A program made the translations under genes and the position numbers. From Escherichia phage vB_EcoM_CRJP21, in sequence record OQ708376.1: DNA of 64,000 bases, one strand, 5' to 3'. Shown here in pieces: positions 50,594 through 63,085 of the stretch (positions within the stretch are counted from its first letter, which is position 1; every line of letters begins with the position of its first letter). The notes under the pieces were generated by a model, which made no database searches, had not been told where the DNA came from, and saw only the letters and a program-made list of their open reading frames with translations.

Positions 50594-50655
50594 TTGCACG
50601 ATTAAGAGATTAGCGTATAATGTTTTACATCGAGAGGGGGAAACGGTTCTCCTTC
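50594..50655 (+). promoter_or_regulatory. promoter TTGCAC..TATAAT + 5' stem-loop
   Basis: cassette architecture. Confidence 0.55.
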
Positions 50656-50676
50656 CAAATCAAAGGAATCAAAACA

Positions 50677-50904
50677 ATGGCTATTATCATTACTCGCGTA
50701 TCTGGTACTACTGGCAACGAACAAGTAGTTGCAGTCATTACTAACAAGGCAGGTGCGGAATTGCAAAATGCAATGAATACCTGGGCCGTTAATGAGTTCG
50801 GTCAGTGGGCAAGTGTAGCATACATTGAAACCTATCAAGTGCCGTCGATTAGTTTAACTGATTTGGGCGTTGAGCGTATCCTTTGCCTGGATGAATTAAA
50901 TTAA
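50677..50904 (+). CDS. hypothetical protein (75 aa)
   Basis: ORF track 50620-50904; ATG 50677 after AAGGAAT. Confidence 0.55.
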   Translation: MAIIITRVSGTTGNEQVVAVITNKAGAELQNAMNTWAVNEFGQWASVAYIETYQVPSISLTDLGVERILCLDELN

Positions 50905-50913
50905 AAAAAGTAC

Positions 50914-50973
50914 TTGCAAAGTAAATCGAATAAAGTATAATACATTACATCAAGGGGAGAAATGATTCTCCCC
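50914..50973 (+). promoter_or_regulatory. promoter TTGCAA-N16-TATAAT + 5' stem-loop GGGGAGAA-ATGA-TTCTCCCC
   Basis: cassette architecture. Confidence 0.6.
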
Positions 50974-50990
50974 ACTACAAGGAAACTAAA

Positions 50991-51203
50991 ATGGCTATCA
51001 TTACTAAAATCAAAGTTAACAAGACTATCGTTAAACTGGCAGAAGTGAAAGAAGGTTATAAAGTATCTTGGTGCGGTATGTATCGGACGTTCGCAGATAT
51101 AGATGATGCGATCAATTATTACAGTGACACGGTTAAAAACTTTGTTCGTGCTGATGTGGTTATGGCAGTGGCAACATATAAAGCAGCGAAAGAAAGTAAG
51201 TAA
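50991..51203 (+). CDS. hypothetical protein (70 aa)
   Basis: AAGGAAAC RBS. Confidence 0.55.
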   Translation: MAIITKIKVNKTIVKLAEVKEGYKVSWCGMYRTFADIDDAINYYSDTVKNFVRADVVMAVATYKAAKESK

Positions 51204-51226
51204 AAATATTATCACAGTACTATTGA

Positions 51227-51261
51227 CATAGTTTGATAGTACTGGCATAATAGATTTTATC
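51227..51261 (+). promoter_or_regulatory. promoter with embedded palindrome AGTACTAT-TGACATAGTTTG-ATAGTACT (operator-like), -10 CATAAT
   Basis: 8 bp inverted arms flank -35 TTGACA and spacer; the same or a closely related palindrome architecture recurs at 46292, 53833, 54093, 58262 and 61888. Confidence 0.55.
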
Positions 51262-51294
51262 AAGACGACACATATTAATTTAAGGAATACTAAA

Positions 51295-51618
51295 ATGGCT
51301 AAAACTATCATCAACACCGTTTCCCTGGCTGCAATCCATGCAATCAATGTTGACGGTAAACGTTGGACTGATTCATATGGCAATACTTATCATTCTTGTC
51401 ATGTAAGCGTTGAACTGGATAACGGCTTGAATGATCTGGCGGTTGAATCATTTACTTATGGCTATGAGGATGCATATCAACAAACGGCGGTATCACTCTT
51501 AAAGGAATCAGTAGACGGGCTTGATACTGTTGAAACCTCCCTCTATCGTTTGTGCAATGATCTTAATATCCCGTTGCATTGTACTGTACAGGATGTAAAA
51601 CGTAAAAAAGATCTTTAA
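51295..51618 (+). CDS. hypothetical protein (107 aa); paralog of 57926-58249
   Basis: shared W/RWTD-x-GNTYHSC, FTYGY, DVKRKKD segments. Confidence 0.6.
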   Translation: MAKTIINTVSLAAIHAINVDGKRWTDSYGNTYHSCHVSVELDNGLNDLAVESFTYGYEDAYQQTAVSLLKESVDGLDTVETSLYRLCNDLNIPLHCTVQDVKRKKDL

Positions 51619-51698
51619 TTAGCTTTACTTTATGCAGATACTTTGATATAGTGTCTGCATAGGGGAAAGAAATTAAATCAACTTAAGAGGAAAGTAAA

Positions 51699-51968
51699 AT
51701 GAAAAATATCAGTACTTTAATCGATGCAGGTACACATGTTCGTCGGTCTATGGTTGCAACCAGTTCTACAAAACAAGTAGCGAGCGGTTATCTTGTATTT
51801 GTGCACGATGGAAAACTCCTGGAACGTTCAATCAATTTTGATGTTAAAAACAATTGCCGTTTTATTATCTTTCGCCGTGAACAATATAAAATTGATTTGC
51901 CAGCGAAGCCCATTAGCGGGGCGTACAACGTGCAATCATTGTTTGAGCGTCAACCTTACACCTATTAA
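51699..51968 (+). CDS. hypothetical protein (89 aa)
   Basis: AGAGGAAAGT RBS. Confidence 0.5.
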   Translation: MKNISTLIDAGTHVRRSMVATSSTKQVASGYLVFVHDGKLLERSINFDVKNNCRFIIFRREQYKIDLPAKPISGAYNVQSLFERQPYTY

Positions 51969-52019
51969 TCAAAACATCGTTAGCGGTCGATTTAGGCCGC
52001 TTATATTGGGGATTATACC

Positions 52020-52292
52020 ATGAACGTTAATCAAGTACTGAATGAGATCGAAAGCATCATTAAACCGATGAAGCGTACTGATGCTATGTTAACACCGGAA
52101 GAATGCCGCCTTTATGAGCGTTACAGCGTCGAACAAGTCCAGGCAATGGCTATGGCTACCCCAGCCGTTTCACCGCCTGAGAATGCGTTACAGGACGTTA
52201 CAGGGGATTATATCATTAATCCAGTACTAGGGAAGATGACTGCAATCACCGAAGATCAAAAAGACTACTTAAGCCAGTACTTAAAAGGTTAA
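52020..52292 (+). CDS. hypothetical protein (90 aa)
   Basis: ORF in track. Confidence 0.5.
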   Translation: MNVNQVLNEIESIIKPMKRTDAMLTPEECRLYERYSVEQVQAMAMATPAVSPPENALQDVTGDYIINPVLGKMTAITEDQKDYLSQYLKG

Positions 52293-52297
52293 TTAAT

Positions 52298-52507
52298 ATG
52301 CTTACTGTACAGGATAAGATCGACATCTTAAAGGTTAATATGTATGTGATTGATGCCGTACCTGGTAAAGTATTTGCATACGATGATAGTACTGTAAGCG
52401 ATTTCTACTATAGCCAGGACGTGGGGGATCTTTCTGTACAGTCGGTTATTGAAAACGTAGTTAATGCAGCGTATGAGCATTTACTTTCAAATAGTACTTG
52501 CAATTAG
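52298..52507 (+). CDS. hypothetical protein (69 aa)
   Basis: ORF in track; 3' end overlaps next promoter. Confidence 0.45.
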   Translation: MLTVQDKIDILKVNMYVIDAVPGKVFAYDDSTVSDFYYSQDVGDLSVQSVIENVVNAAYEHLLSNSTCN

Positions 52508-52557
52508 TTTTTAAACGCGTATAATGTTTTACATGAAGGGGAGAAATGATTCTCCCC
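52498..52557 (+). promoter_or_regulatory. promoter TTGCAA-N16-TATAAT + 5' stem-loop GGGGAGAA-ATGA-TTCTCCCC
   Basis: cassette architecture. Confidence 0.6.
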
Positions 52558-52575
52558 AATAACAGGAGAAACAAA

Positions 52576-52728
52576 ATGAAACAATACAACGCTCGGTTTG
52601 ATGTTACTATCGGTAACGGCAAAGGTCAATTCTCTTTCAGTACTCGCCGCAGTTATACAGAAAACTTCCTGCGTAATTGTGCACTGACCGCCGCTCAAAT
52701 TAAACACTATTTTCAGGCTAAAAAATGA
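52576..52728 (+). CDS. hypothetical basic protein (50 aa)
   Basis: ORF track 52546-52728; ATG 52576 after AGGAGAAAC. Confidence 0.45.
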   Translation: MKQYNARFDVTIGNGKGQFSFSTRRSYTENFLRNCALTAAQIKHYFQAKK

Positions 52729-52814
52729 AATCATTAGCTTATTACAGTTCGGCCCTGGTCGGTGCATTGATCGCGGCATTGTTAGTAACCTATCTATTCT
52801 TTATGGTGATTTAA
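52725..52814 (+). CDS. putative membrane micro-protein (29 aa)
   Basis: ATGA overlap with upstream stop; single hydrophobic helix; speculative. Confidence 0.25.
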   Translation: MKSLAYYSSALVGALIAALLVTYLFFMVI

Positions 52815-52958
52815 ATGAATCCAACAGGTTTAAACTATAAAAGTTGTTCTGCATTTACGAAAGCAAATAAAGCGAATGCACGTAAAGCGAAAGTACAGGA
52901 ATACATCAAGCAAGGCATGACGCGAAAAGCGGCGATTATAAAAGCTAAAAATAAATGA
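52815..52958 (+). CDS. putative basic micro-protein (47 aa)
   Basis: ATG directly after upstream stop; ends at terminator element; speculative. Confidence 0.25.
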   Translation: MNPTGLNYKSCSAFTKANKANARKAKVQEYIKQGMTRKAAIIKAKNK

Positions 52959-52963
52959 AAAAA

Positions 52964-52996
52964 GTGGTTGACTTCGGTCAGCCATTTTGTTATTAT
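52964..52996 (+). terminator. bifunctional terminator/promoter element (variant)
   Basis: GGTTGAC-TTCG-GTCAGCC; TATTAT downstream. Confidence 0.55.
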
Positions 52997-53089
52997 ATAT
53001 TCATTGAGAGATAGCTCACTAGCCCACAGGGTGCAGGAGTGTATCTATTGTATGAGTATTGAGTACTGAAAACTATTTTTAAAAAGTAC

Positions 53090-53148
53090 TTGCAAACTAT
53101 CTCAATAAGCGTATAATGTTTTACATCGAAAGGGGAAACGGTTTCCCC
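53090..53148 (+). promoter_or_regulatory. promoter TTGCAA-N16-TATAAT + 5' stem-loop GGGGAAAC-GG-TTTCCCC
   Basis: cassette architecture. Confidence 0.6.
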
Positions 53149-53168
53149 TGGTAATAAGGAAACAAATC

Positions 53169-53510
53169 ATGACTATCTCAATTGCTCAATCTAACTTTGA
53201 AAATGAAATCATCGCCCAGGCACTGCGTTTAAATGATGGTCGGGCCGAAATTAATTACGGTTTCAATTCAGGCGGTTGCGAAAAATATCAGTACTTTGTA
53301 ACGGCTGATGGCGGTGTCCTGGGTATCAATACAGTTATTGTAAACATCCAAAAAATTAATTTCAATGATCCAGACGATAGCCAGTTTTACATCACTGGCG
53401 TAGACGTGAACTATGAGGATGACTCACTAACTGATGATCACACTGGCGAGCGGTTAGAAAGTGCATACGGTGAAGATGATTATCAGTCCGGTCCAGAAGA
53501 TTTCGAATAA
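53169..53510 (+). CDS. hypothetical acidic protein (113 aa)
   Basis: AAGGAAAC RBS. Confidence 0.55.
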   Translation: MTISIAQSNFENEIIAQALRLNDGRAEINYGFNSGGCEKYQYFVTADGGVLGINTVIVNIQKINFNDPDDSQFYITGVDVNYEDDSLTDDHTGERLESAYGEDDYQSGPEDFE

Positions 53511-53524
53511 TATAAAAAAATAGT

Positions 53525-53584
53525 TTGACAATAGATTATAGTACTGTATAATAGTTTACATCAAGGGGAGAAAAACTTCTCCCC
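53525..53584 (+). promoter_or_regulatory. promoter TTGACA-N16-TGTATAAT + 5' stem-loop
   Basis: cassette architecture. Confidence 0.6.
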
Positions 53585-53606
53585 ACTAACAGAGAGAGAA
53601 AACAAA

Positions 53607-53819
53607 ATGGCTAATATCCGGTCGAAATTAAAAAATGCAAAACAAGTTTTATTTTCAGATCATGAATACTTTAATAAAGATATTACAGGAGTTACAAGTA
53701 TCAAGGAAGTAAAAGAAAAAACCGGCGTTTTGTGTGATGTGCGATTAGTTGGAACATTTGGGAATAACGTGCTATATCGCTGCGGTGATTACAATTTTAC
53801 ACTGACTATCATTAACTAA
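53607..53819 (+). CDS. hypothetical protein (70 aa)
   Basis: AGAGAGAGA RBS-like. Confidence 0.5.
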   Translation: MANIRSKLKNAKQVLFSDHEYFNKDITGVTSIKEVKEKTGVLCDVRLVGTFGNNVLYRCGDYNFTLTIIN

Positions 53820-53832
53820 AAATATTATCACA

Positions 53833-53867
53833 GTACTATTGACATAGTTTGATAGTACTGACATAAT
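53833..53867 (+). promoter_or_regulatory. palindrome-containing promoter (AGTACTATTGACATAGTTTGATAGTACT)
   Basis: same architecture as 51227. Confidence 0.55.
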
Positions 53868-53901
53868 AACTTTTATCAACTACACTATTAAGGAATTAAA
53901 A

Positions 53902-54081
53902 ATGGCTATCATCGCAAAAACTGAAATCGTTGGTCTGGATTCTATCATCATGACGTTTGAAGATCAAAAAGGTATGTATGTAGTTTCATATGGTGATTAT
54001 GTTCGGGAGTATGAAACGGTAGACGAAGCCTTTGAAAGTTACATTCGCCAGGTGAATAAAGCATACGACGATTACCGCTAA
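53902..54081 (+). CDS. hypothetical protein (59 aa)
   Basis: AAGGAAT RBS; below track cutoff. Confidence 0.45.
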   Translation: MAIIAKTEIVGLDSIIMTFEDQKGMYVVSYGDYVREYETVDEAFESYIRQVNKAYDDYR

Positions 54082-54092
54082 AATATATTACC

Positions 54093-54136
54093 AGTACTAT
54101 TAAAGATATTGACAACGTTTGATAGTACTGTATAAT
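54093..54136 (+). promoter_or_regulatory. palindrome-containing promoter (AGTACTAT..TTGACA..ATAGTACTG TATAAT)
   Basis: same architecture as 51227. Confidence 0.55.
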
Positions 54137-54180
54137 AAGTTTTATCAACAGTAGTTAACTTAACCTAAGAGAGAAATAAA

Positions 54181-54324
54181 ATGATCGCACTGGATTCATT
54201 CATCGACGCAGTACTGGCAAAAACTGGCGAGGATCTGACCGCAGAACAATACGCAATGATCGAGCAATGCCAGCAAGACGGTAAATCGGTGAAAGATACT
54301 GTTAAGATTATCCGCAAGATGTAA
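54181..54324 (+). CDS. hypothetical protein (47 aa)
   Basis: AGAGAGAAAT RBS-like; below track cutoff. Confidence 0.4.
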   Translation: MIALDSFIDAVLAKTGEDLTAEQYAMIEQCQQDGKSVKDTVKIIRKM

Positions 54325-54330
54325 GATTAT

Positions 54331-54362
54331 AGCCCACTGGTTAACGCTGGTGGGCTTTAATT
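54331..54362 (+). terminator. terminator-like hairpin AGCCCACTGG-N-CCAGCGGGCT-like with weak T tract
   Basis: inverted repeat read; T-run weak. Confidence 0.4.
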
Positions 54363-54429
54363 CATTACCCTATACAATGCCAGTACTAAACCGTTTATCT
54401 CGTTAGAATGCGTTACAGGACGTTTAACA

Positions 54430-54627
54430 ATGATTAGCATGAAATCAGTACAAAAACAAATAGAAACATTATCAAAAATTAAACGTAAACAGTACTCCTT
54501 AGAATATACAATCAATGGTAACTATCATCTAATGAAAGAGAATAATTTTATAGTCATTGATGAATCATTGCAAATCATTAGTATAGTACTGAAAGCATTA
54601 ATCAATGACAGAAAAAAATTAAAATAA
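54430..54627 (+). CDS. hypothetical protein (65 aa)
   Basis: ORF in track; AT-rich. Confidence 0.4.
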   Translation: MISMKSVQKQIETLSKIKRKQYSLEYTINGNYHLMKENNFIVIDESLQIISIVLKALINDRKKLK

Positions 54628-54631
54628 ACTA

Positions 54632-54660
54632 TTGACAATATCATCAAGTACTGGCATAAT
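54632..54660 (+). promoter_or_regulatory. promoter TTGACA-N17-CATAAT
   Basis: hexamers read; followed by about 300 nt without a + strand ORF. Confidence 0.5.
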
Positions 54661-54958
54661 ACTTACATCAAGACGAGAACGTCACTAACCCATAGGGTGC
54701 ACAAATGTAACTGTATAATATTGATCAAAAAATGATCTGATCAATACTTGATCAATTTGCGTAAAGTAGTATAATTCTATGCAGTTGGTTAGACGAAAGG
54801 TTATGATTAGTAGTGCAAGTGTATAAAAATTTTCATGGTGTATCGTTTCGCACATATGGGGATGAATATGTGGTATCATGTGGATTGGAAAAAGTAAGAA
54901 CAAGTAATATTATTGTCGCATTACAGTACTATAGTATTTTTATAATGAGGTTAAAATA

Positions 54959-55216
54959 ATGGCTGTAGGATTCGCGAAAGATGGGGCCGAACAAGACGAG
55001 ATTAACGCAGTGATTCAGGCCGCCGTTAACCACGCTAGAAAGCAAATTAACGCACAAATAGAATCACTGATACATTGCCTCGACTGCGGCGATATAATCC
55101 CTGAGAATCGACGCCAGGCCGTTAAGGGATGTAAGTACTGCATAACTTGCCAGGAGGATCATGATAGTACTTTTAAACGTCCCCCGCGTAATTGTTGGCA
55201 TAGATCTATGAGATAA
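54959..55216 (+). CDS. DksA/TraR family C4-type zinc-finger protein
   Basis: CLDCGDIIPENRRQAVKGCKYCITCQ matches TraR-type C-x2-C-x17-C-x2-C pattern with conserved IP..RR. Confidence 0.6.
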   Translation: MAVGFAKDGAEQDEINAVIQAAVNHARKQINAQIESLIHCLDCGDIIPENRRQAVKGCKYCITCQEDHDSTFKRPPRNCWHRSMR

Positions 55217-55222
55217 AAAGTA

Positions 55223-55250
55223 TTGACAGTACTGAAAGATAGTGTATAAT
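55223..55250 (+). promoter_or_regulatory. promoter TTGACA-N16-TATAAT
   Basis: consensus hexamers. Confidence 0.55.
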
Positions 55251-55279
55251 GTTTTATATCTTAACTGAGGATAGAAATC

Positions 55280-55636
55280 ATGGGAATACAACATATCACG
55301 CGTACTACTGACAATGGCGAGATCACTGGTTATCAAGTACAGGGCAAAGTAGCACAATTGCAGTACTGGTTTGTTAAACGTGGAATCATTGCACCGGATC
55401 TTGATTATGACCGTGTAGCGTTTATTGATTCTCTTTATGTTGATCCTGATAGTCGGGGCAATGGTGAAGGTAACGAATTAATGAATGCCTTTATTGATGC
55501 CGCCGATGATTCAGATTGTATCATTTTAGAATGCGATACGGGAGAAGATAACGCCTTTAATCTTAAAGAATGGTACGAAGGTTTCGGATTCGAGGTACTG
55601 ATCGATAGTGAATATCCTATCATGATTTTATCATAG
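55280..55636 (+). CDS. GNAT-like N-acetyltransferase (putative)
   Basis: YVDPDSRGNGEGNELM and NAFNLKEWYEGFGFE resemble GNAT motifs A and B; motif-level only. Confidence 0.45.
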   Translation: MGIQHITRTTDNGEITGYQVQGKVAQLQYWFVKRGIIAPDLDYDRVAFIDSLYVDPDSRGNGEGNELMNAFIDAADDSDCIILECDTGEDNAFNLKEWYEGFGFEVLIDSEYPIMILS

Positions 55637-55638
55637 TA

Positions 55639-55696
55639 CTTGCATTTAGTTTTCAGTAGTGTTATAGTACTTACATCAAGGGGAAACATCTTCCCC
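55639..55696 (+). promoter_or_regulatory. promoter-like + 5' stem-loop GGGGAAACATCTTCCCC
   Basis: weaker -10 (TATAGT). Confidence 0.45.
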
Positions 55697-55708
55697 TACT
55701 AAGAGGAA

Positions 55709-55903
55709 ATGAAAATGGAAAACTTATCAAGTATTTTAGTACAAGATGATTTCGGTAATCCTGGAAGTGCTATCATTGTTCGGGGTAATAAAGCAACATT
55801 TGTTATTGCTGGTGGACCTGTACAGCGTAGCATTAAAAACAATGCCGTTACTATTAATAATGTACGCTATCGCTTAGATAAAGAATTGATTCATAAACTG
55901 TAA
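55709..55903 (+). CDS. hypothetical protein (64 aa)
   Basis: GAGGAAAT RBS. Confidence 0.5.
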   Translation: MKMENLSSILVQDDFGNPGSAIIVRGNKATFVIAGGPVQRSIKNNAVTINNVRYRLDKELIHKL

Positions 55904-55930
55904 TATTAATTTAATAGAGGATAACAATAA

Positions 55931-56254
55931 ATGTACATTCATACTACTATCACAAAGGAAGTCCGTTGCCAGTTCGAAAGTATTCCGGGCGTATGTTTCA
56001 TCACTGGTACGTTTTCCCCTGGTGATCGTGATAATCCAGTACTGTTACAATTACGCCATCCATCATGGGATAAAGCATTTGATCTACCGTTGAATGAATT
56101 CGCAACTACTGCTGAAAAGTACATTAAAAATATTCGCGAGAATGATCGACTATTCATTAATGCTTTTAGTGATTCCGCGTTAAGCGAGATCCACGGTGTA
56201 TTGGTTGCAATCATGGAATCAATGGAGAAAACTAAATTCAAACAAGGTGAATAA
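55931..56254 (+). CDS. hypothetical protein (107 aa)
   Basis: AGAGGAT RBS. Confidence 0.55.
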   Translation: MYIHTTITKEVRCQFESIPGVCFITGTFSPGDRDNPVLLQLRHPSWDKAFDLPLNEFATTAEKYIKNIRENDRLFINAFSDSALSEIHGVLVAIMESMEKTKFKQGE

Positions 56255-56260
56255 AAACTA

Positions 56261-56320
56261 TTGACAAGATAATCTAGTACTGTATAATAAGTTACATGAA
56301 GGGGAGAAATGATTCTCCCC
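56261..56320 (+). promoter_or_regulatory. promoter TTGACA-N17-TATAAT + 5' stem-loop GGGGAGAA-ATGA-TTCTCCCC
   Basis: cassette architecture. Confidence 0.6.
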
Positions 56321-56337
56321 ACTGAGAGGAAAGAAAA

Positions 56338-56550
56338 ATGCAAGGTCAACTAATCGTTCGTAAATGGTCTGATACTAACGCTAAACCGTGGGATGTACAA
56401 TACATCGGACCGGATGGGGTATCACGTTATCAGCCTGGCGTAACGCATAGTACTGAGCAATATGCCGCCGCTCACCGCGAACGCCTGTTAGAATCCATGA
56501 AACAGGGATACGGTGAAAAATTCATTCAAGATCATTGGCTGAAAGATTAA
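56338..56550 (+). CDS. hypothetical protein (70 aa)
   Basis: GAGAGGAAAG RBS. Confidence 0.55.
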   Translation: MQGQLIVRKWSDTNAKPWDVQYIGPDGVSRYQPGVTHSTEQYAAAHRERLLESMKQGYGEKFIQDHWLKD

Positions 56551-56567
56551 TATAAGGAGTACAGCTT

Positions 56568-56660
56568 ATGCAAATGAATCCGATGATTATTGTTTTAGCT
56601 GTACTTATGATCATTCATGCAATAGTAGAAGTATTAACGCAATCAGGAGTAATAAAATGA
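56568..56660 (+). CDS. putative membrane micro-protein (30 aa)
   Basis: AAGGAG N8 ATG; hydrophobic; speculative. Confidence 0.3.
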   Translation: MQMNPMIIVLAVLMIIHAIVEVLTQSGVIK

Positions 56661-56830
56661 TTCAAGTAGAATTATCAGTACTGAAAGATCTGTTTTATCG
56701 GTTAGGTACTACTGGCGAGTATCCTAAAAGTGATACCGCAAAACTTTTTGTATCACTCGACTTATGGCAACGCGAACAATTAGTAATGTCCTGGCGTAAA
56801 GGTAAAGCAGATAGCGAGGTGAAAGCATGA
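56657..56830 (+). CDS. hypothetical protein (57 aa)
   Basis: ATGA overlap; AGGAG upstream. Confidence 0.35.
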   Translation: MIQVELSVLKDLFYRLGTTGEYPKSDTAKLFVSLDLWQREQLVMSWRKGKADSEVKA

Positions 56831-56976
56831 AAGAATTCTTATTCGAAGTAGTGTTTCAAGGTGTCGGTAGTAACCAACTGATTCGCTCAAGTGGTTACAA
56901 TGTTAACCAGGCATGGAATAACATTAAACAAATGTACCCGAACGCTATCACCTATCGCAACCCGAAACAAGTTTAA
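56827..56976 (+). CDS. hypothetical protein (49 aa)
   Basis: ATGA overlap; ends just before terminator element. Confidence 0.35.
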   Translation: MKEFLFEVVFQGVGSNQLIRSSGYNVNQAWNNIKQMYPNAITYRNPKQV

Positions 56977-56990
56977 AAATAATTGAAAAA

Positions 56991-57026
56991 GGGATTGACT
57001 CCGGTCAGTCCCTTTGCTATTATATA
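56991..57026 (+). terminator. bifunctional terminator/promoter element (GGGATTGAC-TCCG-GTCAGTCCC)
   Basis: hairpin; TTGACT-N17-TATTAT; identical copies at 60261 and 62519. Confidence 0.6.
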
Positions 57027-57122
57027 CGCATAGAAACAAATCAGCCCACAGGGTGCATAAATGTATCTATTGTTTGCTGGTGGCTAGTACTGAAAACTAT
57101 TTTTAAAAAAGTACTTGCATTG

Positions 57123-57267
57123 TACTTAGAATCAAGTATAATGTTTTACATCAGGACGGGGAACGAAACAAGTAACCCCGTTAAGTAGTCCAGGAGTAAG
57201 ACATAAGAAAACCTCCCCTGATAAAATAGTTTGACAATAGAAAGTAAACGAGTATAATACTTACATC
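57123..57267 (+). promoter_or_regulatory. tandem promoters flanking about 80 nt structured leader (second copy of 47203-47348 element)
   Basis: near-identical to 47203-47348. Confidence 0.55.
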
Positions 57268-57291
57268 AACCACTGATAAGGAAACATTAAA

Positions 57292-57567
57292 ATGCGGATT
57301 CTACTGACAGCTAACGAAATCGAACAAGTACTGACTACTAACCTGGAAGACTGGAAACGTGAAGCAGATATCCAGGCGGTTCAACGGCTTAACGATGAGT
57401 TAACGCCGGATGACTTAAGCAAGATTGTAGATCCTCAATTCTACGAAGATATCCACGACACCGCGTTAAGCGTCGAGGATGTACTAGATAAGCACTACAT
57501 TGATATTGATTTGCAGGTTTACGGTCGTAAAAACTTTATCACTATTCACGACATTTACAATAATTAA
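57292..57567 (+). CDS. hypothetical acidic protein (91 aa)
   Basis: AAGGAAAC RBS. Confidence 0.55.
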   Translation: MRILLTANEIEQVLTTNLEDWKREADIQAVQRLNDELTPDDLSKIVDPQFYEDIHDTALSVEDVLDKHYIDIDLQVYGRKNFITIHDIYNN

Positions 57568-57570
57568 GTA

Positions 57571-57630
57571 TTGACAAAGTATCTTAGTACTGTATAATAG
57601 TTTACATCGAGAGGGGGAATGGTTCCCCTC
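57571..57630 (+). promoter_or_regulatory. promoter TTGACA-N17-TGTATAAT + 5' stem-loop GAGGGGGAA-TGG-TTCCCCTC
   Basis: cassette architecture. Confidence 0.6.
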
Positions 57631-57653
57631 CTAACAAAGAGAGAGAAATAAAA

Positions 57654-57836
57654 ATGGCTAAATGCACTATCTGTAAGAAAGAAATCGTATTAGTTCCAAG
57701 TGCCCGTGAACGTGCCGCTCGGTTCGGTGGCAAAGCGTCAGACTATACAAAAATGTTTACTACCCATGCAGCTTGCCAGGTAGCAAAACGTTCACAAGAA
57801 AGCGTAGAATTAATGCGTAAACTTTCCAAAAAATAA
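57654..57836 (+). CDS. hypothetical basic protein (60 aa) with CTICKK...HAAC cysteines
   Basis: AGAGAGAGA RBS-like. Confidence 0.5.
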   Translation: MAKCTICKKEIVLVPSARERAARFGGKASDYTKMFTTHAACQVAKRSQESVELMRKLSKK

Positions 57837-57839
57837 GTA

Positions 57840-57900
57840 TTGACAAAGTATCTTAGTACTGTATAATAGTTTACATCAAGCGAGGGGAATGGTTCCCCTC
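57840..57900 (+). promoter_or_regulatory. promoter TTGACA-N17-TGTATAAT + 5' stem-loop (duplicate of 57571 cassette)
   Basis: near-identical to preceding cassette. Confidence 0.6.
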
Positions 57901-57925
57901 CTAACTAAAAGAGAGAGAAATAAAA

Positions 57926-58249
57926 ATGGCTATGATCCTTACCCAGAAAGTAGAACTGAAAATTGTAACCTCCTTTGACATTAAAGTTAATCGCTGGACT
58001 GATCGGAACGGTAACACTTACCACTCTTGCTACGTGTCCGCGTTAATTGGCGACCGCTGGGAAGACTTGGGACATGAAACCTTTACTTACGGTTACGGTA
58101 CACAAGGAGAATACACGGGCTTGGAGATCATTAAAGAAACCGTTATAGGTTTCAACCCGAAAGAAAAAGTTATTCACCGCATCGAAAAAGAGATTAACAA
58201 AGAAATAACAGTTCGCTACTACGATGTAAAACGTAAGAAAGACATGTAA
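57926..58249 (+). CDS. hypothetical protein (107 aa); paralog of 51295-51618
   Basis: shared motifs as noted. Confidence 0.6.
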   Translation: MAMILTQKVELKIVTSFDIKVNRWTDRNGNTYHSCYVSALIGDRWEDLGHETFTYGYGTQGEYTGLEIIKETVIGFNPKEKVIHRIEKEINKEITVRYYDVKRKKDM

Positions 58250-58261
58250 TAGAATCCATTT

Positions 58262-58300
58262 AAAGTACTATTTGACATTGCCCAGATAGTACTTTATAAT
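58262..58300 (+). promoter_or_regulatory. palindrome-containing promoter (AAGTACTAT-TTGACA-...-ATAGTACTT TATAAT)
   Basis: TTGACA-N17-TATAAT with flanking inverted arms. Confidence 0.55.
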
Positions 58301-58344
58301 AGACTCTAACTTGTAGTACTAACTCAACTAATAGGATGTATACC

Positions 58345-58740
58345 ATGATTACTAAATTCTACGCTACCCGTGAAGCTGCCCGTATTGTTGCACGCGAGGA
58401 AGGAGCAGCATTTAAAGACATGGGCAAAGATGCACCGAAAGGTCAACGCTGGGCCGTACAGTTCAAAGAAATCTCTGATATCGTGAATTCACCGGAGCCA
58501 GTACTAACAGCAGCAGAACTAAAACGAGCGGATTTACTGGCGGCAGTACTTAACGCACAAGATGAATTTATCGCTGATTCTGATATCAAAGTACAGACAA
58601 ACCATACCGCTTGGACTCACGCGGATCACCTGGCAAACCTTAAGCGTCCAAGTGAACTGGTTCGCAACCAGAAAGAGATCCGACACGACCGTAAGGGTAA
58701 TCGTGTAACAGTATACAGTAAACGCCGCCAGGTTATCTAA
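58345..58740 (+). CDS. hypothetical protein (131 aa); paralog of 46368-46634
   Basis: ORF track 58336-58740; ATG 58345 matches paralog N-terminus. Confidence 0.55.
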   Translation: MITKFYATREAARIVAREEGAAFKDMGKDAPKGQRWAVQFKEISDIVNSPEPVLTAAELKRADLLAAVLNAQDEFIADSDIKVQTNHTAWTHADHLANLKRPSELVRNQKEIRHDRKGNRVTVYSKRRQVI

Positions 58741-58762
58741 TAACTTGCAGTACTAACAACAC

Positions 58763-58788
58763 GGCGGGATCAGTTCCCGCCTTTTTTA
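58763..58788 (+). terminator. intrinsic terminator (GGCGGGA-N-TCCCGCC + T6)
   Basis: hairpin + T-run. Confidence 0.7.
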
Positions 58789-58802
58789 TAGGATAAACTA
58801 AA

Positions 58803-59057
58803 ATGATTAAGGTACAACTATCTAAAGATAATATCTTGCGGGTACACTATAAAGCACCACAGAGAATCATCACAAAGGCCGTACAGCTTGCTAATGAGTT
58901 TATTAATGGTAACCTATTACCAAGGAAGTTAAGCAACGGAAAACTGCGTGTAATCGATGTAGACACTAACAACAGAATAGTAATTGAGAACACAGGAAAG
59001 ATAAACCTATATGAACACCAACAATATAATAAGAAAATAAAACTAATATCACGTTGA
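58803..59057 (+). CDS. hypothetical protein (84 aa)
   Basis: ORF in track. Confidence 0.5.
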   Translation: MIKVQLSKDNILRVHYKAPQRIITKAVQLANEFINGNLLPRKLSNGKLRVIDVDTNNRIVIENTGKINLYEHQQYNKKIKLISR

Positions 59058-59110
59058 CAGTACTCAATTGTTTTAGTACTATGTACATATACCAACACGG
59101 GAGAAACAAA

Positions 59111-59329
59111 ATGAAATTATCTAAAATCGAAAAGAAAACTATTGATGAAGCAGTTAAGCACGGTTATACCTTTCGTAATGATTCACATTTTACCAATTTT
59201 CAACAAGGGTATCGTACTATTAAAAAACTCATTGACAAAGGTTTATTAGTTGAAGTCAATAACGGCAATGGTATTGAGTATCAACCAACACAAGACGCAT
59301 TTTATTTTAAGAAATATAATATTATCTAA
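59111..59329 (+). CDS. hypothetical protein (72 aa)
   Basis: ORF track 59054-59329; ATG 59111 after GGGAGAAAC. Confidence 0.5.
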   Translation: MKLSKIEKKTIDEAVKHGYTFRNDSHFTNFQQGYRTIKKLIDKGLLVEVNNGNGIEYQPTQDAFYFKKYNII

Positions 59330-59387
59330 TTGACAGTACTCAAATGTTTTAGTACTATATGTACATACCAACACGGGGAAAAACAAA

Positions 59388-59630
59388 ATGATTACTTTAG
59401 AAAAACGTATCAAAGAAACTACATCGCTGGTGGAACTGTTAACAGTACTGAAATGCCGTACTACTCGGTTTAGTACACCGGACTTTATTAATATGGTTGA
59501 TGTTAATGGTCGCTATCGTATCACGGTCGAACAAGGAGCGGCGAAAGTATTCAGTACTAAAAACACTAAGGAAGTGATTCACGCTGTAAGTGTTAAAAAA
59601 GTAGTTGCCATTGATAGTAAAGTACTGTAA
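59388..59630 (+). CDS. hypothetical protein (80 aa)
   Basis: preceded by near-duplicate of the 59055-59110 intergenic. Confidence 0.5.
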   Translation: MITLEKRIKETTSLVELLTVLKCRTTRFSTPDFINMVDVNGRYRITVEQGAAKVFSTKNTKEVIHAVSVKKVVAIDSKVL

Positions 59631-59661
59631 GATAGTTTCATTAACTCAAGGAGAACATGCA

Positions 59662-60246
59662 ATGCGTAATTATACTAAATTCATCCGTACCCTGTCAGAA
59701 ATGGAAACCAACAAAGAGATCCTTTCAGCTTGTCGGTTAGCTGGTCTGGAGATCATCGGTGCGGGTTCTTCCCGTATTGTATTCGCTTTAAATGATCGGT
59801 TAGTGATTAAGGTCGCGAATTGTGATGCGGGTGTAGAACAAAATGAAACTGAATGTAAGGTATGGAATTTTTTAGATTATGACCGCCCTCAATTGAAACA
59901 GTACTTTGCAAAGGTGCATATGCATTTATGCGATCCTGATAATATGTTTATCGTTATGGATCGGTTGAGTACTGCAAGTAAAGGCAGTGTAAAGCACGTA
60001 AACGCGTGCAATGAATTAAAGTACAATATTAAACGTAATGCCATTGAACGCCAGCACCGCTTTGCTGATGCACTACAACACGTTGATGATACATTATCAA
60101 CACTAACGATAAGAGATATCAGAAAACAGAATATCGGCCAGGATCGTAATGGCCTTATTAAAGTACTTGATTACGGTTTAACCCGCAATATCTGGAATCA
60201 GTACTATAAAAAGCGTGATGTAGAAGCAAGTAAGGTAACACGATAA
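59662..60246 (+). CDS. small protein-kinase-like protein (G-loop GAGSSRIV, VIKV, RDIRKQN, DYG)
   Basis: ORF track 59605-60246; ATG 59662 after AAGGAG; kinase subdomain motifs in canonical order. Confidence 0.45.
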   Translation: MRNYTKFIRTLSEMETNKEILSACRLAGLEIIGAGSSRIVFALNDRLVIKVANCDAGVEQNETECKVWNFLDYDRPQLKQYFAKVHMHLCDPDNMFIVMDRLSTASKGSVKHVNACNELKYNIKRNAIERQHRFADALQHVDDTLSTLTIRDIRKQNIGQDRNGLIKVLDYGLTRNIWNQYYKKRDVEASKVTR

Positions 60247-60260
60247 AAAAGATTAAAAAA

Positions 60261-60296
60261 GGGATTGACTCCGGTCAGTCCCTTTGCTATTATATA
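60261..60296 (+). terminator. bifunctional terminator/promoter element
   Basis: GGGATTGAC-TCCG-GTCAGTCCC; TATTAT downstream. Confidence 0.6.
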
Positions 60297-60387
60297 TTCA
60301 TTGAGAGATAACTCACTGACCCATAGGGTGCGGAAGTGTATCTATTATATAAGTATTCAGTACTGAAAACTATTTTTAAAAAAGTAC

Positions 60388-60448
60388 TTGCATTGTACTT
60401 AGAATCAAGTATAATGTTTTACATAGAGAGGGGGAAATGGTTCTCCCT
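60388..60448 (+). promoter_or_regulatory. promoter TTGCAT..TATAAT + 5' stem-loop
   Basis: cassette architecture. Confidence 0.6.
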
Positions 60449-60467
60449 GGTAATAAGGAATAAAATC

Positions 60468-60689
60468 ATGACTACAATGACTTGCATTTACGCTTCCAAT
60501 CTTCTGAATGATGCGGCCTTTAATGTTGATTCAGAATATCAATGTTATCGGGATGAAAATAAAAAAGTTTTTGTAGTTGATAATAATGGTTTCCATATTG
60601 AATTACAATCCGGTTTCACTGGTGTTGATGGTAAATCAGTGTGGGGCGTACAGGATGATAAAGGCACATATCATTTTAAACGTAATTAA
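60468..60689 (+). CDS. hypothetical protein (73 aa)
   Basis: ORF track 60336-60689; ATG 60468 after AAGGAAT. Confidence 0.55.
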   Translation: MTTMTCIYASNLLNDAAFNVDSEYQCYRDENKKVFVVDNNGFHIELQSGFTGVDGKSVWGVQDDKGTYHFKRN

Positions 60690-60693
60690 GTAT

Positions 60694-60751
60694 TGACAAA
60701 GTATATCAGTACTGTATAATAGTTTACATCAAGGGGAGAATAGTTCTCCCC
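60694..60751 (+). promoter_or_regulatory. promoter TTGACA-N15-TGTATAAT + 5' stem-loop GGGGAGAA-TAG-TTCTCCCC
   Basis: cassette architecture. Confidence 0.6.
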
Positions 60752-60773
60752 GATACTAAAAGGAAACAAAATT

Positions 60774-61046
60774 ATGTCCAGCTACTCCGCTACTATGATC
60801 ATTAAAGATATGAACGGTAATCCTACTTCTGCTGGTGGATCATTTGGAAACATTAATTTAGATGGTCGGTTATCCATGCAATCAGCCATCGATGCAGCGA
60901 AAGAAGTTTTTAAGAATGAATGTACTGTTAGTAAGATGGATTATATGGGATTCGCTATCGAGAAAACTAATCGTTTTGTGAACTACAAAAATCCACTGAT
61001 GATTGATACTAACCTGAAAGCTAACGAAGTGGGGTACTTATTATGA
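60774..61046 (+). CDS. hypothetical protein (90 aa)
   Basis: AAAGGAAAC RBS. Confidence 0.55.
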   Translation: MSSYSATMIIKDMNGNPTSAGGSFGNINLDGRLSMQSAIDAAKEVFKNECTVSKMDYMGFAIEKTNRFVNYKNPLMIDTNLKANEVGYLL

Positions 61047-61234
61047 CAGTAGAAGAAGTTAAAAAAGTACTGGCAGTACTACGCTATCATAATCATTGCA
61101 AGGTGAAGAATGATCCTGATTATGTTGATTCATCCCTGGAGGAAGACACATTAAACGCAATAAGCCATATGCAAACATTAGCAAAGCGTATGACCGAAAA
61201 GAATAGACCGGACTATATCGGAAATAAAATTTAA
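61043..61234 (+). CDS. hypothetical protein (63 aa)
   Basis: ATGA overlap. Confidence 0.45.
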   Translation: MTVEEVKKVLAVLRYHNHCKVKNDPDYVDSSLEEDTLNAISHMQTLAKRMTEKNRPDYIGNKI

Positions 61235-61242
61235 AAAGTACT

Positions 61243-61302
61243 TGCATTGTAGTTAGATTAACGTATAATGTTTTACATAGAGCGGGGGAATAGTTCTCCC
61301 GC
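61243..61302 (+). promoter_or_regulatory. promoter TTGCAT..TATAAT + 5' stem-loop
   Basis: cassette architecture. Confidence 0.6.
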
Positions 61303-61320
61303 CAGTCCAGGAGATACACC

Positions 61321-61584
61321 ATGAACACTATCGAAATCACTATCAATGCACACGTATACGACAACGTAGTACTGCAAACTACTATGACCGCTAATGATAC
61401 CAGTACTTTGCGGAATACCGTTGTAAGTGCTGTATGTGCTGCAATCGGTGATGTAGCCCTGGAAAATGCAGAACACATCAACAACGGTTTCACTATGTGC
61501 AAACGTGATAACGCAAAACATATCATCTTAGAAGGTTACGGCGGTGTAGAATATAATCTTTATATGAAAAAAGTACTTGCATAA
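61321..61584 (+). CDS. hypothetical protein (87 aa)
   Basis: AGGAGAT RBS. Confidence 0.55.
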   Translation: MNTIEITINAHVYDNVVLQTTMTANDTSTLRNTVVSAVCAAIGDVALENAEHINNGFTMCKRDNAKHIILEGYGGVEYNLYMKKVLA

Positions 61585-61632
61585 TAACTAAAACAAAGTA
61601 TAATGTTTTGCATAGGGGGAGATATCCTCCCC
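61576..61632 (+). promoter_or_regulatory. promoter TTGCAT..TATAAT + 5' stem-loop GGGGGAGA-TAT-CCTCCCCC
   Basis: overlaps 3' end of upstream gene. Confidence 0.55.
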
Positions 61633-61651
61633 CACTAAAAGGAGTAATAAA

Positions 61652-61876
61652 ATGGCTAACTTTGATGAACTGATGCGGGAAGTAGCTAACCTGGCAGAAG
61701 AGAAGAAATCATTCGATTCTATCTATAACACCGCTCACCGTGATTCAGTACTGGCATGTACTCAGGATCAAAAAGATGAACTAATCGCCACCTATCATGA
61801 AGCATGGAAGTACTACCGACAATGGGAGAAAGAAGAAAGTGAGTCTACCATTGACGGCCTCAATAATCTAATCTAA
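61652..61876 (+). CDS. hypothetical protein (74 aa)
   Basis: AAGGAGT RBS. Confidence 0.55.
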   Translation: MANFDELMREVANLAEEKKSFDSIYNTAHRDSVLACTQDQKDELIATYHEAWKYYRQWEKEESESTIDGLNNLI

Positions 61877-61887
61877 AAGTTTTATTT

Positions 61888-61923
61888 CAGTACTATTGAC
61901 ATAGCTTGATAGTACTGATGTAA
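61888..61923 (+). promoter_or_regulatory. palindrome-containing promoter (AGTACTATTGACATAGCTTGATAGTACT)
   Basis: same architecture as 51227. Confidence 0.5.
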
Positions 61924-61952
61924 TAACTTTACTAACTACAAGGGGAAACATA

Positions 61953-62210
61953 ATGGAACAGTTCACACAATATCGGGTAAATCCTCAAGCTATGGCCTAC
62001 GTAGAAGACCATAAAACATTACCAGTACTGCAACCAGTTAAAGGCCATATCTATCGTGCTATGTCGTGGAGTACTGCACAGGATGGATATAAAACCGTTG
62101 CCGTGGGTATGTATTGCGGGAATGGTGAATGGTTTGATCCAAATAATCCGGTAGCCATTGACAGTACTGAAAAAATGAAATGGGCCGACTACATCGAAGA
62201 TATTTCATAA
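61953..62210 (+). CDS. hypothetical protein (85 aa)
   Basis: AAGGGGAAAC RBS. Confidence 0.5.
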   Translation: MEQFTQYRVNPQAMAYVEDHKTLPVLQPVKGHIYRAMSWSTAQDGYKTVAVGMYCGNGEWFDPNNPVAIDSTEKMKWADYIEDIS

Positions 62211-62216
62211 AACTAT

Positions 62217-62280
62217 TTGACAGTACTAACCAGTAATGTATAATGTTTTACATAGAGCGGGGGAATAGTTCTCCCGTCAA
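62217..62280 (+). promoter_or_regulatory. promoter TTGACA-N16-TATAAT + 5' stem-loop
   Basis: cassette architecture. Confidence 0.6.
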
Positions 62281-62299
62281 TAGTTTGGAGTAAAACATT

Positions 62300-62500
62300 A
62301 TGTCTATCGCTATCGCCCTGGTTGAAGTACTGAAAGAAGCTAAAGCCAACCTTATCGATGTACAGATTAAGGAATTACAAAATGGTTTAATCGGCTGTAC
62401 TTGTACCGCTGGTGGAGCGGCAGACTATCGGGAATTCGAATCACTTGAATCGATGGTCCGTTATCTTACCATGATCGTAGAAGATTGGAGAATCATCTAA
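62300..62500 (+). CDS. hypothetical protein (66 aa)
   Basis: GGAGTAAAAC RBS. Confidence 0.5.
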   Translation: MSIAIALVEVLKEAKANLIDVQIKELQNGLIGCTCTAGGAADYREFESLESMVRYLTMIVEDWRII

Positions 62501-62518
62501 CAAAAAAGAATAAAAAAA

Positions 62519-62554
62519 GGGATTGACTCCGGTCAGTCCCTTTGCTATTATATA
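62519..62554 (+). terminator. bifunctional terminator/promoter element
   Basis: GGGATTGAC-TCCG-GTCAGTCCC; TATTAT downstream. Confidence 0.6.
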
Positions 62555-62695: not shown

Positions 62696-62746
62696 ATCTC
62701 GTAGGGCGGCAATGGTGCGACGGCCCACAAAGTTAGGAGATTCAAA

Positions 62747-63079: not shown

Positions 63080-63085
63080 AAAGTA

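Follow-up and report, generated by a model that had tools for sequence, protein, structure and literature searches.

The closest described counterparts of the elements analyzed here are the PeSLs of T4-like phages, i.e., conserved intergenic blocks of ~100 bp in which a stem-loop with demonstrated terminator activity is joined to an A/T-rich tract and a strong early promoter of the sigma-70 type (PMC2839356, PMC4122927). These promoter-stem-loop units occur mainly where small genes of unknown function are crowded together, and they bring about modular shuffling (Arbiol et al. 2010, PMC2839356; Comeau et al. 2014, PMC4122927), and recombination between PeSL cassettes as well as mini-circles have been documented (PMC2839356). 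Here we analyze six early promoters that carry an inverted repeat, all on the plus strand of a 64,000-nucleotide stretch of DNA (the window) from Escherichia phage vB_EcoM_CRJP21 (sequence record OQ708376.1). These promoters are interrupted palindromes whose two sides covary between phages, and their arms contain the hexamer AGTACT. Our preferred explanation, to which we assign a probability of about 0.45, is that the inverted repeat would be the inner stem of a variant PeSL, i.e., a promoter/stem-loop cassette built from a word, AGTACT, that characterizes this clade of phages.

The window's group is Asteriusvirus, the 121Q/PBECO4-like jumbo coliphages; positions 50000-56000 are 94-97% identical to several Escherichia and Salmonella Asteriusvirus jumbo phages and 90% identical to 121Q. 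The region from 44 to 64 kb is an early region, in which small plus-strand genes of unknown function each have their own sigma-70-type promoter. Like a PeSL, the element in question is a repeated, conserved intergenic block that unites a stem-loop with an A/T-rich tract and an early promoter of the sigma-70 type. It is likewise concentrated among small genes of unknown function (six copies within 46-62 kb), stands beside unrelated genes and is common to several phages. Unlike in PeSLs, the stem is A/U-rich and made of AGTACT rather than of G/C runs, and the carriers are RaK2-like jumbo, rV5-like and phAPEC8-like phages, which are outside the coverage of the PeSL papers.

A second useful comparison is with phage T7, whose early genes have RNase III processing hairpins between them that do not coincide with promoters. 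The hairpins considered here resemble those of T7 in being interrupted, ~20-30 bp long, provided with internal loops and located between tandem early genes, with cleavage being hypothetical in the present case.

Interrupted palindromes over early promoters

A preliminary description of the window had proposed that these promoters share 8-bp inverted arms. The arm pattern, AGTACTAT-N(10-14)-ATAGTACT, indeed has five exact plus-strand matches in the window (46296-46323, 51216-51243, 53832-53859, 58264-58293 and 61889-61916, with 12 or 14 nucleotides between the arms), and none was found in 100 dinucleotide shuffles. As had also been proposed, the arms enclose the -35 element and the spacer: TTGACA is bracketed in four of the five matches, and the arms stop 1-2 nucleotides short of the -10 element. 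The sites had been located correctly, with listed starts that were 1-11 nucleotides off. Two sites fit the original account only in part. At 54093 both arms exist (54093-54100 and 54122-54129), but the gap between them is 21 nucleotides, the upstream arm being 9 bp farther from the -35 element than in the other sites. The site given as probable at 46292 has perfect 9-bp arms, AGTACTATC/GATAGTACT, which start at 46296, but it lacks a recognizable -35 element.

The symmetry is not confined to the arms. All six promoters are interrupted palindromes of ~55-73 nucleotides that extend from an UP-like tract to just beyond the -10 element, with up to ~25 nucleotides per side. Their layout is an UP-like A/T tract, cAGTACTAT, TGACA-N6-Y-G, ATAGTACTg, (C/T)ATAAT and a T-rich start region, where the promoter elements are TTGACA-17-CATAAT/TATAAT with AAAA(A)TATTATC upstream. 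In the predicted fold, the -35 element is mostly in the hairpin loop and the -10 element is in the 3' side of the outer stem. Fold energies for the six promoters range from -15.7 to -22.1 kcal/mol, corresponding to z scores of -3.9 to -5.7 against dinucleotide shuffles, compared to +0.88 and -0.58 for two ordinary early promoters that served as controls. When the six promoters are aligned with two from RaK2, GATAGTACT is unchanged in eight of eight, and AGTACTAT is in the same register in seven of eight.

The first cassette (51200..51260) has the arms AGTACTAT at 51216-51223 and ATAGTACT at 51236-51243, the -35 element TTGACA at 51223-51228 and the -10 element CATAAT at 51246-51251; its RNA (51196-51272) folds at -19.5 kcal/mol (z = -4.73) with stems of 6+6+12 bp. 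Nearly identical to it over ~70 nucleotides is the second cassette (53817..53875; arms 53832-53839 and 53852-53859, -35 at 53839-53844, -10 CATAAT at 53862-53867, z = -4.19). The third cassette (61876..61930) has arms at 61889-61896 and 61909-61916, its -35 at 61896-61901 and TGTAAT as its -10 at 61919-61924, with a fold of -20.5 kcal/mol (z = -4.57). The variant with the 21-nucleotide gap occupies 54079..54144 (-35 at 54109-54114, -10 TATAAT at 54131-54136, z = -3.94).

The other two cassettes constitute a second subtype, AAAGTACTAT...ATAGTACTTT-ATAAT. One (46276..46344) lacks a -35 consensus and has its 9-bp arms at 46296-46304 and 46315-46323, a -10 TATAAT at 46325-46330 and z = -4.75. The other (58242..58314) has arms at 58264-58271 and 58286-58293 separated by 14 nucleotides, a -35 at 58272-58277 and a -10 TATAAT at 58295-58300, and its fold has the lowest energy of the set (-22.1 kcal/mol, z = -5.69).

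Given that AGTACT is frequent in this DNA (see below), it is important to consider whether the arms might simply reflect that frequency. General AGTACT enrichment alone does not account for them. Among the 14 AGTACT pairs in the window that are spaced by 20-24 bp, the inner AT..AT flanks are present in five, compared to 0.116 expected from flank frequencies (Poisson P = 1.6e-7), although, with some of the copies being paralogous, the five co-occurrences are not independent events.

Distribution of the cassette among phages

The sharply defined promoter subclass that had been suggested for the window exists, and it is kept well outside it: in RaK2 and Hallingskeid, as a variant in Munch, and in rV5-like and phAPEC8-like phages. 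Near base-for-base copies number seven within 6 kb of Erwinia phage Hallingskeid and two in Klebsiella phage RaK2. Salmonella phage Munch has a variant form, and further copies are present in several metagenomic contigs. Some phages that are not AGTACT-rich, namely A5-4, A73, Nernie and phAPEC8, carry the cassette singly or in pairs.

In these relatives, homologous cassettes differ in their arms and yet stay complementary. Arms in rV5-like and phAPEC8-like phages include TGTACT/AGTACA, TATACT/AGTATA and AGCGCT/AGTGCT. The left and right arms are CTTGTACTAT and ATAGTACAAG in Nernie, CTTATACTAT and ATAGTATAAG in phAPEC8, and CTAGCGCTAT and ATAGTGCTGG in A73. Phage A5-4 has two arm types, with a first cassette whose arms are AGTACTAT and ATAGTACT in tandem with a second whose arms are CTAGCGCTAT and ATAGTGCTGG. 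Further complementary variants are CAGTACTAT/ATAGTACTG, CCACACCTAT/ATAGGTGTGG and CATACCTAT/ATAGGTATG. Among the non-AGTACT arms there are G·U pairs, which only the sense strand tolerates. Mismatches of the G·T kind outnumber those of the A·C kind by 5 to 3 in the arms, which is a comparison of few cases. The sense strand also folds better than the antisense strand, at -19.5 versus -15.0 kcal/mol for the window's 51196 cassette, -26.5 versus -9.9 for A73 and -24.6 versus -21.7 for Nernie.

To assess complementarity more broadly, we gathered homologous cassettes using BLAST and a pattern that leaves the outer arms free. This pattern, CTATTGAC-N7-GATAG-N6-YATAAT, leaves six outer positions unconstrained and has 151 matches, most of which come from a metagenome scan. 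In 44 of these, five or six of the six outer positions are complementary, where ~0.7 would be expected by chance, and the matches include the unrelated arm types CCACAC/GTGTGG, CATAC/GTATG and ATAC/GTAT. In IMG/VR, a scan with a loose pattern yielded mostly chance matches, and scans with strict patterns matched only 121Q, RaK2 and one phAPEC8-like contig.

In an ungapped alignment of 29 sequences, 89.9% of the cells of a 13-bp helix are paired, compared to 19-57% when the partners are slid. Two-sided changes are present at five pairs (30 cells), and the observed covariation was reached by none of 500 shuffles. The partner of the G in TTGACA is C or U in all 29 sequences.

The genes behind the cassettes are diverse. 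The cassette precedes at least 10 unrelated families of small genes, all of unknown function, in four jumbo-phage lineages. In the window, the genes (all on the plus strand) encode proteins of 107 aa (51295..51618, PHROG 6246), 59 aa (53902..54081), 47 aa (54181..54324), 85 aa (61953..62210), 88 aa (46368..46634, PHROG 8127) and 131 aa (58345..58740, PHROG 8127), of which the first four have no known function and the last two are paralogous (35% identity, E = 2e-18). Pfam and PHROG scans of the downstream and neighboring proteins returned only families of unknown function, besides a DksA/TraR-type protein and a sigma-70-family sigma factor.

Several families recur behind cassettes. Homologues of the 51295 gene in phAPEC8 (37% identity), Nernie and metagenomic contigs are always behind a palindromic cassette, which can have any arm type. 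The 58345 protein is 44% identical to Hallingskeid 15096, and this orthologue likewise lies behind a class II cassette, so that the 46368, 58345 and Hallingskeid 15096 genes form one recurring family. RaK2 ORF351 and Hallingskeid 9393 (52% identity) form another. Within a 70-aa family, the 121Q gene stands behind AGTACT arms and the A5-4 gene behind AGCGCT/AGTGCT arms. Because homologous genes stand behind different arm types, the block behaves as a mobile regulatory cassette and not as a gene-specific operator. Judging indirectly from its distribution, the block probably moves together with small genes that have no relationship to one another and is exchanged among them, both inside and across phage families.

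Explanations for the inverted repeat

Three observations lead us to prefer a stem-loop of the sense strand over a duplex operator or a cruciform, namely the better fold of the sense strand, the G·U-type pairs and the presence of two arm types in one phage. Under this hypothesis, host sigma-70 RNA polymerase would start at the near-consensus cassette promoters on duplex DNA, as their match to the consensus suggests, and would thereby express the small early genes. Covariation and folding suggest that the sense read-through RNA of the upstream early gene would form an interrupted hairpin of ~24-30 bp. The likeliest role of such a hairpin would be that of an attenuator or terminator, an RNase III-type processing site or a 3'-end stabilizer that would insulate neighboring gene cassettes. 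The stem-loops of the PeSLs of T4-like phages have been assigned such a role. The repeated block might in addition act as a linker for cassette exchange.

It is important to emphasize that several points weigh against this explanation. The stem-loop overlies the -35 element and spacer, whereas in described PeSLs it precedes the A/T tract. Being A/U-rich and having no U-tract directly after its strong inner stem, the hairpin would perform poorly as a canonical intrinsic terminator. GATAG has an invariant G, even though A would pair better with the opposing T. The set in which covariation was measured was partly selected for at least four of six complementary outer positions, and BLAST-defined homologues contribute few independent compensatory events, at about four positions. 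In addition, the arm core AGTACTAT/ATAGTACT is invariant in the 22 jumbo-phage and AGTACT-armed sequences of the 29-sequence alignment, while the loop of 6-7 nucleotides varies freely. Since the arms are fixed while the loops vary, pairing is not the sole constraint, and either a sequence-specific reader or concerted evolution must also act. Finally, the proposed role of the RNA is derived from sequence alone; a literature search for a transcriptome of the Asteriusvirus/RaK2-like group found none.

Because the stem-loop is placed over the promoter and is A/U-rich without an adjacent U-tract, we classify the cassette as a PeSL variant rather than as a true member of the class. We rejected the idea of a canonical intrinsic terminator, as a terminator scan of the window picked up none of the six cassettes; ordinary early promoters were likewise without separate terminators. 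If our preferred explanation is correct, the PeSL idea of self-contained promoter-stem-loop units for the swapping of small genes would extend to 350-kb jumbo phages as well as to rV5-like and phAPEC8-like phages. The superimposition of promoter and hairpin would be a new layout and a compact natural part in which a strong sigma-70 promoter comes with its own insulator.

The preliminary description had instead interpreted the 8-bp arms as an operator for a dimeric repressor or activator. In this scenario, a phage-encoded symmetric protein would bind both arms and occlude the -35 element and spacer, so that the subset of genes would be jointly shut off or activated. A more plausible version has a tetramer, with one dimer on each AGTACT, 21-22 bp apart on one face of the helix. 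The invariance of the arm core across the 22 copies, with the intervening nucleotides free, is what such a site would predict, and the arms overlap the region that RNA polymerase contacts. Moreover, pairs of AGTACT spaced by 20-24 bp bracket the -35 element in unrelated promoter families even without an extended palindrome, e.g., AAAAAGTAC-TTGCAA...AGTACTG (20 bp) and, in GAP32, AGTACT-TTGACA-N10-AGTACTT (22 bp). Purifying selection on AGTACT at the DNA level and the co-occurrence of inner AT..AT flanks far above chance also favor an operator. The arrangement resembles lambdoid OR/OL and P22 Arc/Mnt operators, which are likewise inverted repeats over the -35 element and spacer of a sigma-70 promoter and are repeated within the genome. 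Unlike in those operators, half-sites are 21-22 bp apart from center to center, symmetry extends for ~25 nucleotides per side, and arms show compensatory changes between phages.

Nonetheless, we regard an operator as unlikely. Each 8-bp arm contains the self-palindromic AGTACT, of which the window has 280 copies and which is found in 40 of its 61 promoter-like sites. A palindrome of ~55-73 nucleotides that takes in the UP-like tract and the -10 element is too long for an operator. The phAPEC8, Nernie and A73 cassettes are complementary with different arm sequences, and one regulator cannot read both of the arm types that stand side by side in A5-4. Neither G·U-type pairs nor an advantage of the sense fold would make sense for a duplex site. 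A scan of ten proteins (nine encoded beside the sigma-factor gene and one protein-kinase-like early protein) yielded no candidate regulator, the only match being a DksA/TraR zinc finger, and phAPEC8-like genomes have just a single such site.

A function of the DNA itself, in which RNA plays no part, appears improbable. The palindrome might respond to supercoiling as a cruciform, or it might serve cassette exchange as a recombination hot spot or linker; it is long and A/T-rich, and it precedes unrelated genes in different phage families. The recombination and mini-circles known from PeSLs (PMC2839356) would provide a precedent for the latter version. However, a cruciform needs both strands to be paired, and the strands are not equivalent, most clearly in A73 (-26.5 versus -9.9 kcal/mol). 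Central unpaired stretches disfavor the extrusion of cruciforms, and here 6-13 central nucleotides are unpaired. We also considered whether a divergent promoter could be the cause of the palindrome, and rejected it: the jumbo-phage version has a mirrored -10 element (GATAAT, bottom strand), which phAPEC8 lacks, and no usable -35 element is located at the proper distance.

It is very improbable that the arms are a functionless by-product, i.e., two independent AGTACT copies in unconstrained sequence within a duplicated promoter-plus-gene lineage, because, despite the many AGTACT-bearing promoters, the higher AGTACT density of non-coding DNA, the paralogy of the 46368 and 58345 genes and the near-identity of the 51216 and 53832 sites, the inner flanks co-occur beyond chance, z scores for folding are ~0 in other AGTACT-bearing promoters, the module is almost unchanged from genus to genus even where the downstream proteins share 44-52% identity or have no relationship, and compensatory arm variants exist outside the AGTACT-rich clade.

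The AGTACT word and neighboring elements

AGTACT is the most common hexamer in the window (1..64000), with 280 sites where ~21 are expected. Its one-mismatch variants are not enriched (4-57 copies each), and its sole flank preference is cAGTACTg. Based on a crude gene call, 190 sites are coding, in all three frames (1 per 281 bp), and 90 are non-coding (1 per 118 bp), i.e., the word is 2.4 times as dense in non-coding as in coding DNA. Within genes, the word is chosen over synonymous alternatives in every frame, at 4-6 times expectation. In frame 0, AGTACT is used in 79 of 141 Ser-Thr contexts (20.0 expected from codon usage); in frame 1, in 36 of 70 contexts of [K/Q/E]-Tyr followed by a T-initial codon (6.0 expected); and in frame 2, in 66 of 122 xxA-Val-Leu contexts (11.7 expected). 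The dipeptides ST and VL are themselves over-represented by 1.5-1.6 times, in contrast to TS and LV.

Conservation leads to the same picture. In the early region, which is ~89% identical to 121Q, 87% of AGTACT sites are intact in 121Q, compared to 62% of control hexamer windows. Divided by class, the figures for AGTACT and controls are 79% versus 59% in coding DNA and 93% versus 68.5% in non-coding DNA. AGTACT is the top hexamer in every related region that we sampled, across five lineages. There are 133 sites per 50 kb in the replication/structural region of 121Q, 114 per 50 kb in Klebsiella phage RaK2 (220 per 40 kb in its early region), 114 and 253 per 50 kb in Cronobacter phage GAP32, 150 per 21.5 kb in Erwinia phage Hallingskeid and 84 per 13.4 kb in Salmonella phage Munch. 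Controls have far fewer, with 2 per 40 kb in muut (an unrelated coliphage of similar G+C content), 2 per 12.7 kb in phAPEC8 and 3 in one 50-kb stretch of E. coli K-12. The enrichment in the clade is 7-18 times expectation, or one site per ~150-450 bp, and is ~70 times denser than in the sampled E. coli stretch. AGTACT is a clade-wide word under selection at the DNA level. Our search of the literature on AGTACT in jumbo phages and on Asteriusvirus/RaK2 promoters found no prior description of it.

The spacing of AGTACT sites shows a weak and inconsistent under-dispersion, with coefficients of variation (CV) of 0.77-1.09 across regions. Some regions (1-28000 and 44000-64000 of the window, and regions in relatives) are more even than random (CV 0.77-0.86, P = 0.0005-0.10), while others are without effect. 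The largest gap between sites is below the simulated median in six of seven regions tested.

The word also occupies fixed positions in ordinary early promoters. Of 61 promoter-like sites in the window (at most one mismatch), 40 have AGTACT in their core. One such position is a spacer slot, TTGACA-N9-AGTACTG-TATAAT, which starts 15 or 16 nucleotides after the start of the -35 element (about -19 to -14). This slot is occupied in 18 of 40 promoters in the window, 16 of 30 in 121Q, 21 of 31 in RaK2 and 7 of 21 in GAP32, i.e., in three genera, and is also visible in promoter lists for Hallingskeid and Munch. A slot on the -35 side takes the forms AGTAC-TTGCAA or AGTAC-TTGACA, AGTACTA-TTGACA, AGTACT-TTGACA and TTGAC-AGTACT. 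Promoters with two AGTACT copies 20-24 bp apart are found in every lineage, in promoter families that are unrelated in sequence. An example of the common non-palindromic promoter, with AGTACT in the spacer slot only, is at 57571..57598 on the plus strand, and has no fold signal; others are at 4137, 8451, 19038, 53525, 56261, 57840 and 60693. We considered an extended -10 element (TGn) as the explanation for the spacer copy and rejected it: TG is at -14/-13 in promoters with a 16-bp spacer, and it is absent from the AGTACTT-TATAAT promoters of GAP32 and Munch. For the RaK2-like supergroup, the CBB paper describes RpoD-like promoters with UP elements, a -35 class TGAAACG, which it suggests for relatives of the window's phage, and late promoters of the form ATAAATA; neither the palindrome nor AGTACT is part of its account.

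Given that DNA-level selection maintains AGTACT at 7-18 times expectation and that the word occupies fixed promoter slots, a clade-specific reader likely exists, and it may additionally act on the palindromic promoters. Over-represented genomic words that have a dedicated reader are known, namely Chi, DNA uptake sequences and KOPS. AGTACT resembles these in being an exact, short word that is conserved in a clade and far above expectation in coding DNA by way of synonymous choice. Unlike them, it is a perfect palindrome and therefore has no orientation, it belongs to a virus, and it is also fixed at promoter positions.

We examined several candidate readers. The SlmA-binding site of E. coli is reportedly GTGAGTACTCAC (Cho et al. 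2011; Tonthat et al. 2011), whose central six bases are AGTACT, and the hosts of these phages are enterobacteria with SlmA. However, the flank preference is opposite (cAGTACTg is preferred), GAGTACTC accounts for 1 of 280 sites, and GTnAGTACTnAC is absent from the window and occurs twice in ~380 kb of related phage DNA; we therefore rejected SlmA. A resemblance to half-sites of LexA or TrpR in AGTACTGTATAAT and GTACT was dismissed on reading the sequence, as a second half-site is missing from the position where it would be required. The restriction of Mom to the RaK2 branch argues against it as the reader. The clade encodes a conserved PF05869 Dam-type methyltransferase, as well as a C5-cytosine methyltransferase (PMC7247149). 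We consider the former, which has no known link to AGTACT, improbable as the reader, and RaK2 DNA behaves as is typical of Dam, Dcm and CpG methylation (PMC3622015); nothing links the C5-cytosine enzyme to AGTACT either. AGTACT does have the properties of a ScaI-type target, in that it is an exact 6-bp palindrome whose one-base variants are not tolerated, and such exactness would be expected of restriction-modification-type enzymes more than of transcription factors.

A broader possibility, which we consider doubtful but worth stating, is that AGTACT is a clade-wide "self" mark that is read by a phage factor to globally shut off or re-program early transcription, with the palindromic cassettes as the strongest, paired sites. 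The control of transcription would follow from the location of the word at about -19 to -14 and next to the -35 element in most early promoters. If true, the reading of such a mark would add to viruses a novel type of regulatory or identity code that spans the genome. Regardless of the fate of this idea, we see the word as the larger open question: it is enriched 7-18 times, in every frame, in at least five lineages of jumbo phages, whose hosts belong to four genera. This enrichment implies a dedicated reader that is apparently undescribed, for which a DNA-binding protein, a modification enzyme and a nuclease are candidates. The answer would bear on how jumbo phages discriminate their own DNA from that of the host and on the timing of early expression.

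We made a number of additional observations on words and promoters related to AGTACT. The hexamers CGTACG and GGTACC have no sites in the window, in 121Q at 200-250 kb or in GAP32 at 100-150 kb, while other NGTACN words are present; this absence may reflect avoidance of restriction sites. One promoter family, AAAAAGTAC-TTGCAA, has TTGCAA instead of TTGACA as its -35 element, with AGTACT overlapping the hexamer. Its plus-strand members are at 45963, 46642, 47203, 48005, 48260, 49045, 50914, 52498 and 53090, and the family is also plentiful in RaK2, Hallingskeid, GAP32 and Munch. Two promoters, at 59054-59082 and 59330-59358 on the plus strand, read TTGAC-AGTACT-N10-AG-TACTAT and have one AGTACT on the 3' end of the -35 element and a second on the -10 element (TACTAT). 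Window positions 57231-57600 (locus L007, 19667-20050) contain two promoters and the intervening gene that are common to muut, an unrelated coliphage of 146 kb, including a promoter with 44 identical nucleotides. Sharing of a patch with both promoters and gene indicates a recent horizontal transfer of the cassette. Both AGTACT sites in the 40 kb of muut fall inside this patch.

The window also contains composite units that are more similar to PeSLs of known type. That at 52961-52996 on the plus strand has an A3-4G3...C3T3-4 terminator hairpin with TTGACT in the stem, followed by a -10 element. The general form is AAAGGG-TTGACT-loop-GTCAGCCC-TTTTT-TATAAT, in which the loop is TTCG or TCCG and the T-run constitutes the spacer. 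These units match the stem-loop type of phage nt-1 (A3-4G3-loop-C3T3-4) in PMC4122927. Others are at 56988-57023, 60258-60293 and 62516-62551, as well as at -35 elements that start at 10224, 13467, 13650, 16312, 20807, 22089 and 24047.

Two genes of the window encode proteins that are associated with transcription. The DksA/TraR-type zinc-finger protein (54959-55216, plus strand, Pfam E = 5e-11) is encoded in the early region and is likely a modulator of host RNA polymerase. The sigma-70-family sigma factor, with regions 2, 3 and 4 detected by Pfam, is encoded at 788-1753 on the plus strand, among the mixed genes of the first 28 kb. From 28 to 39 kb, the minus strand has an array of ~9 RCC1-like paralogues (28411-39432), with intergenic gaps at 29564-29634, 30841-30915, 32092-32162 and 35831-35901. 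Terminators in this array are split-word hairpins of the form GCCAGTAC-loop-GTACTGGC followed by a T-run. Each RCC1-like gene is preceded by a TAAATATAGTATAAT motif, which may be a late-type promoter.

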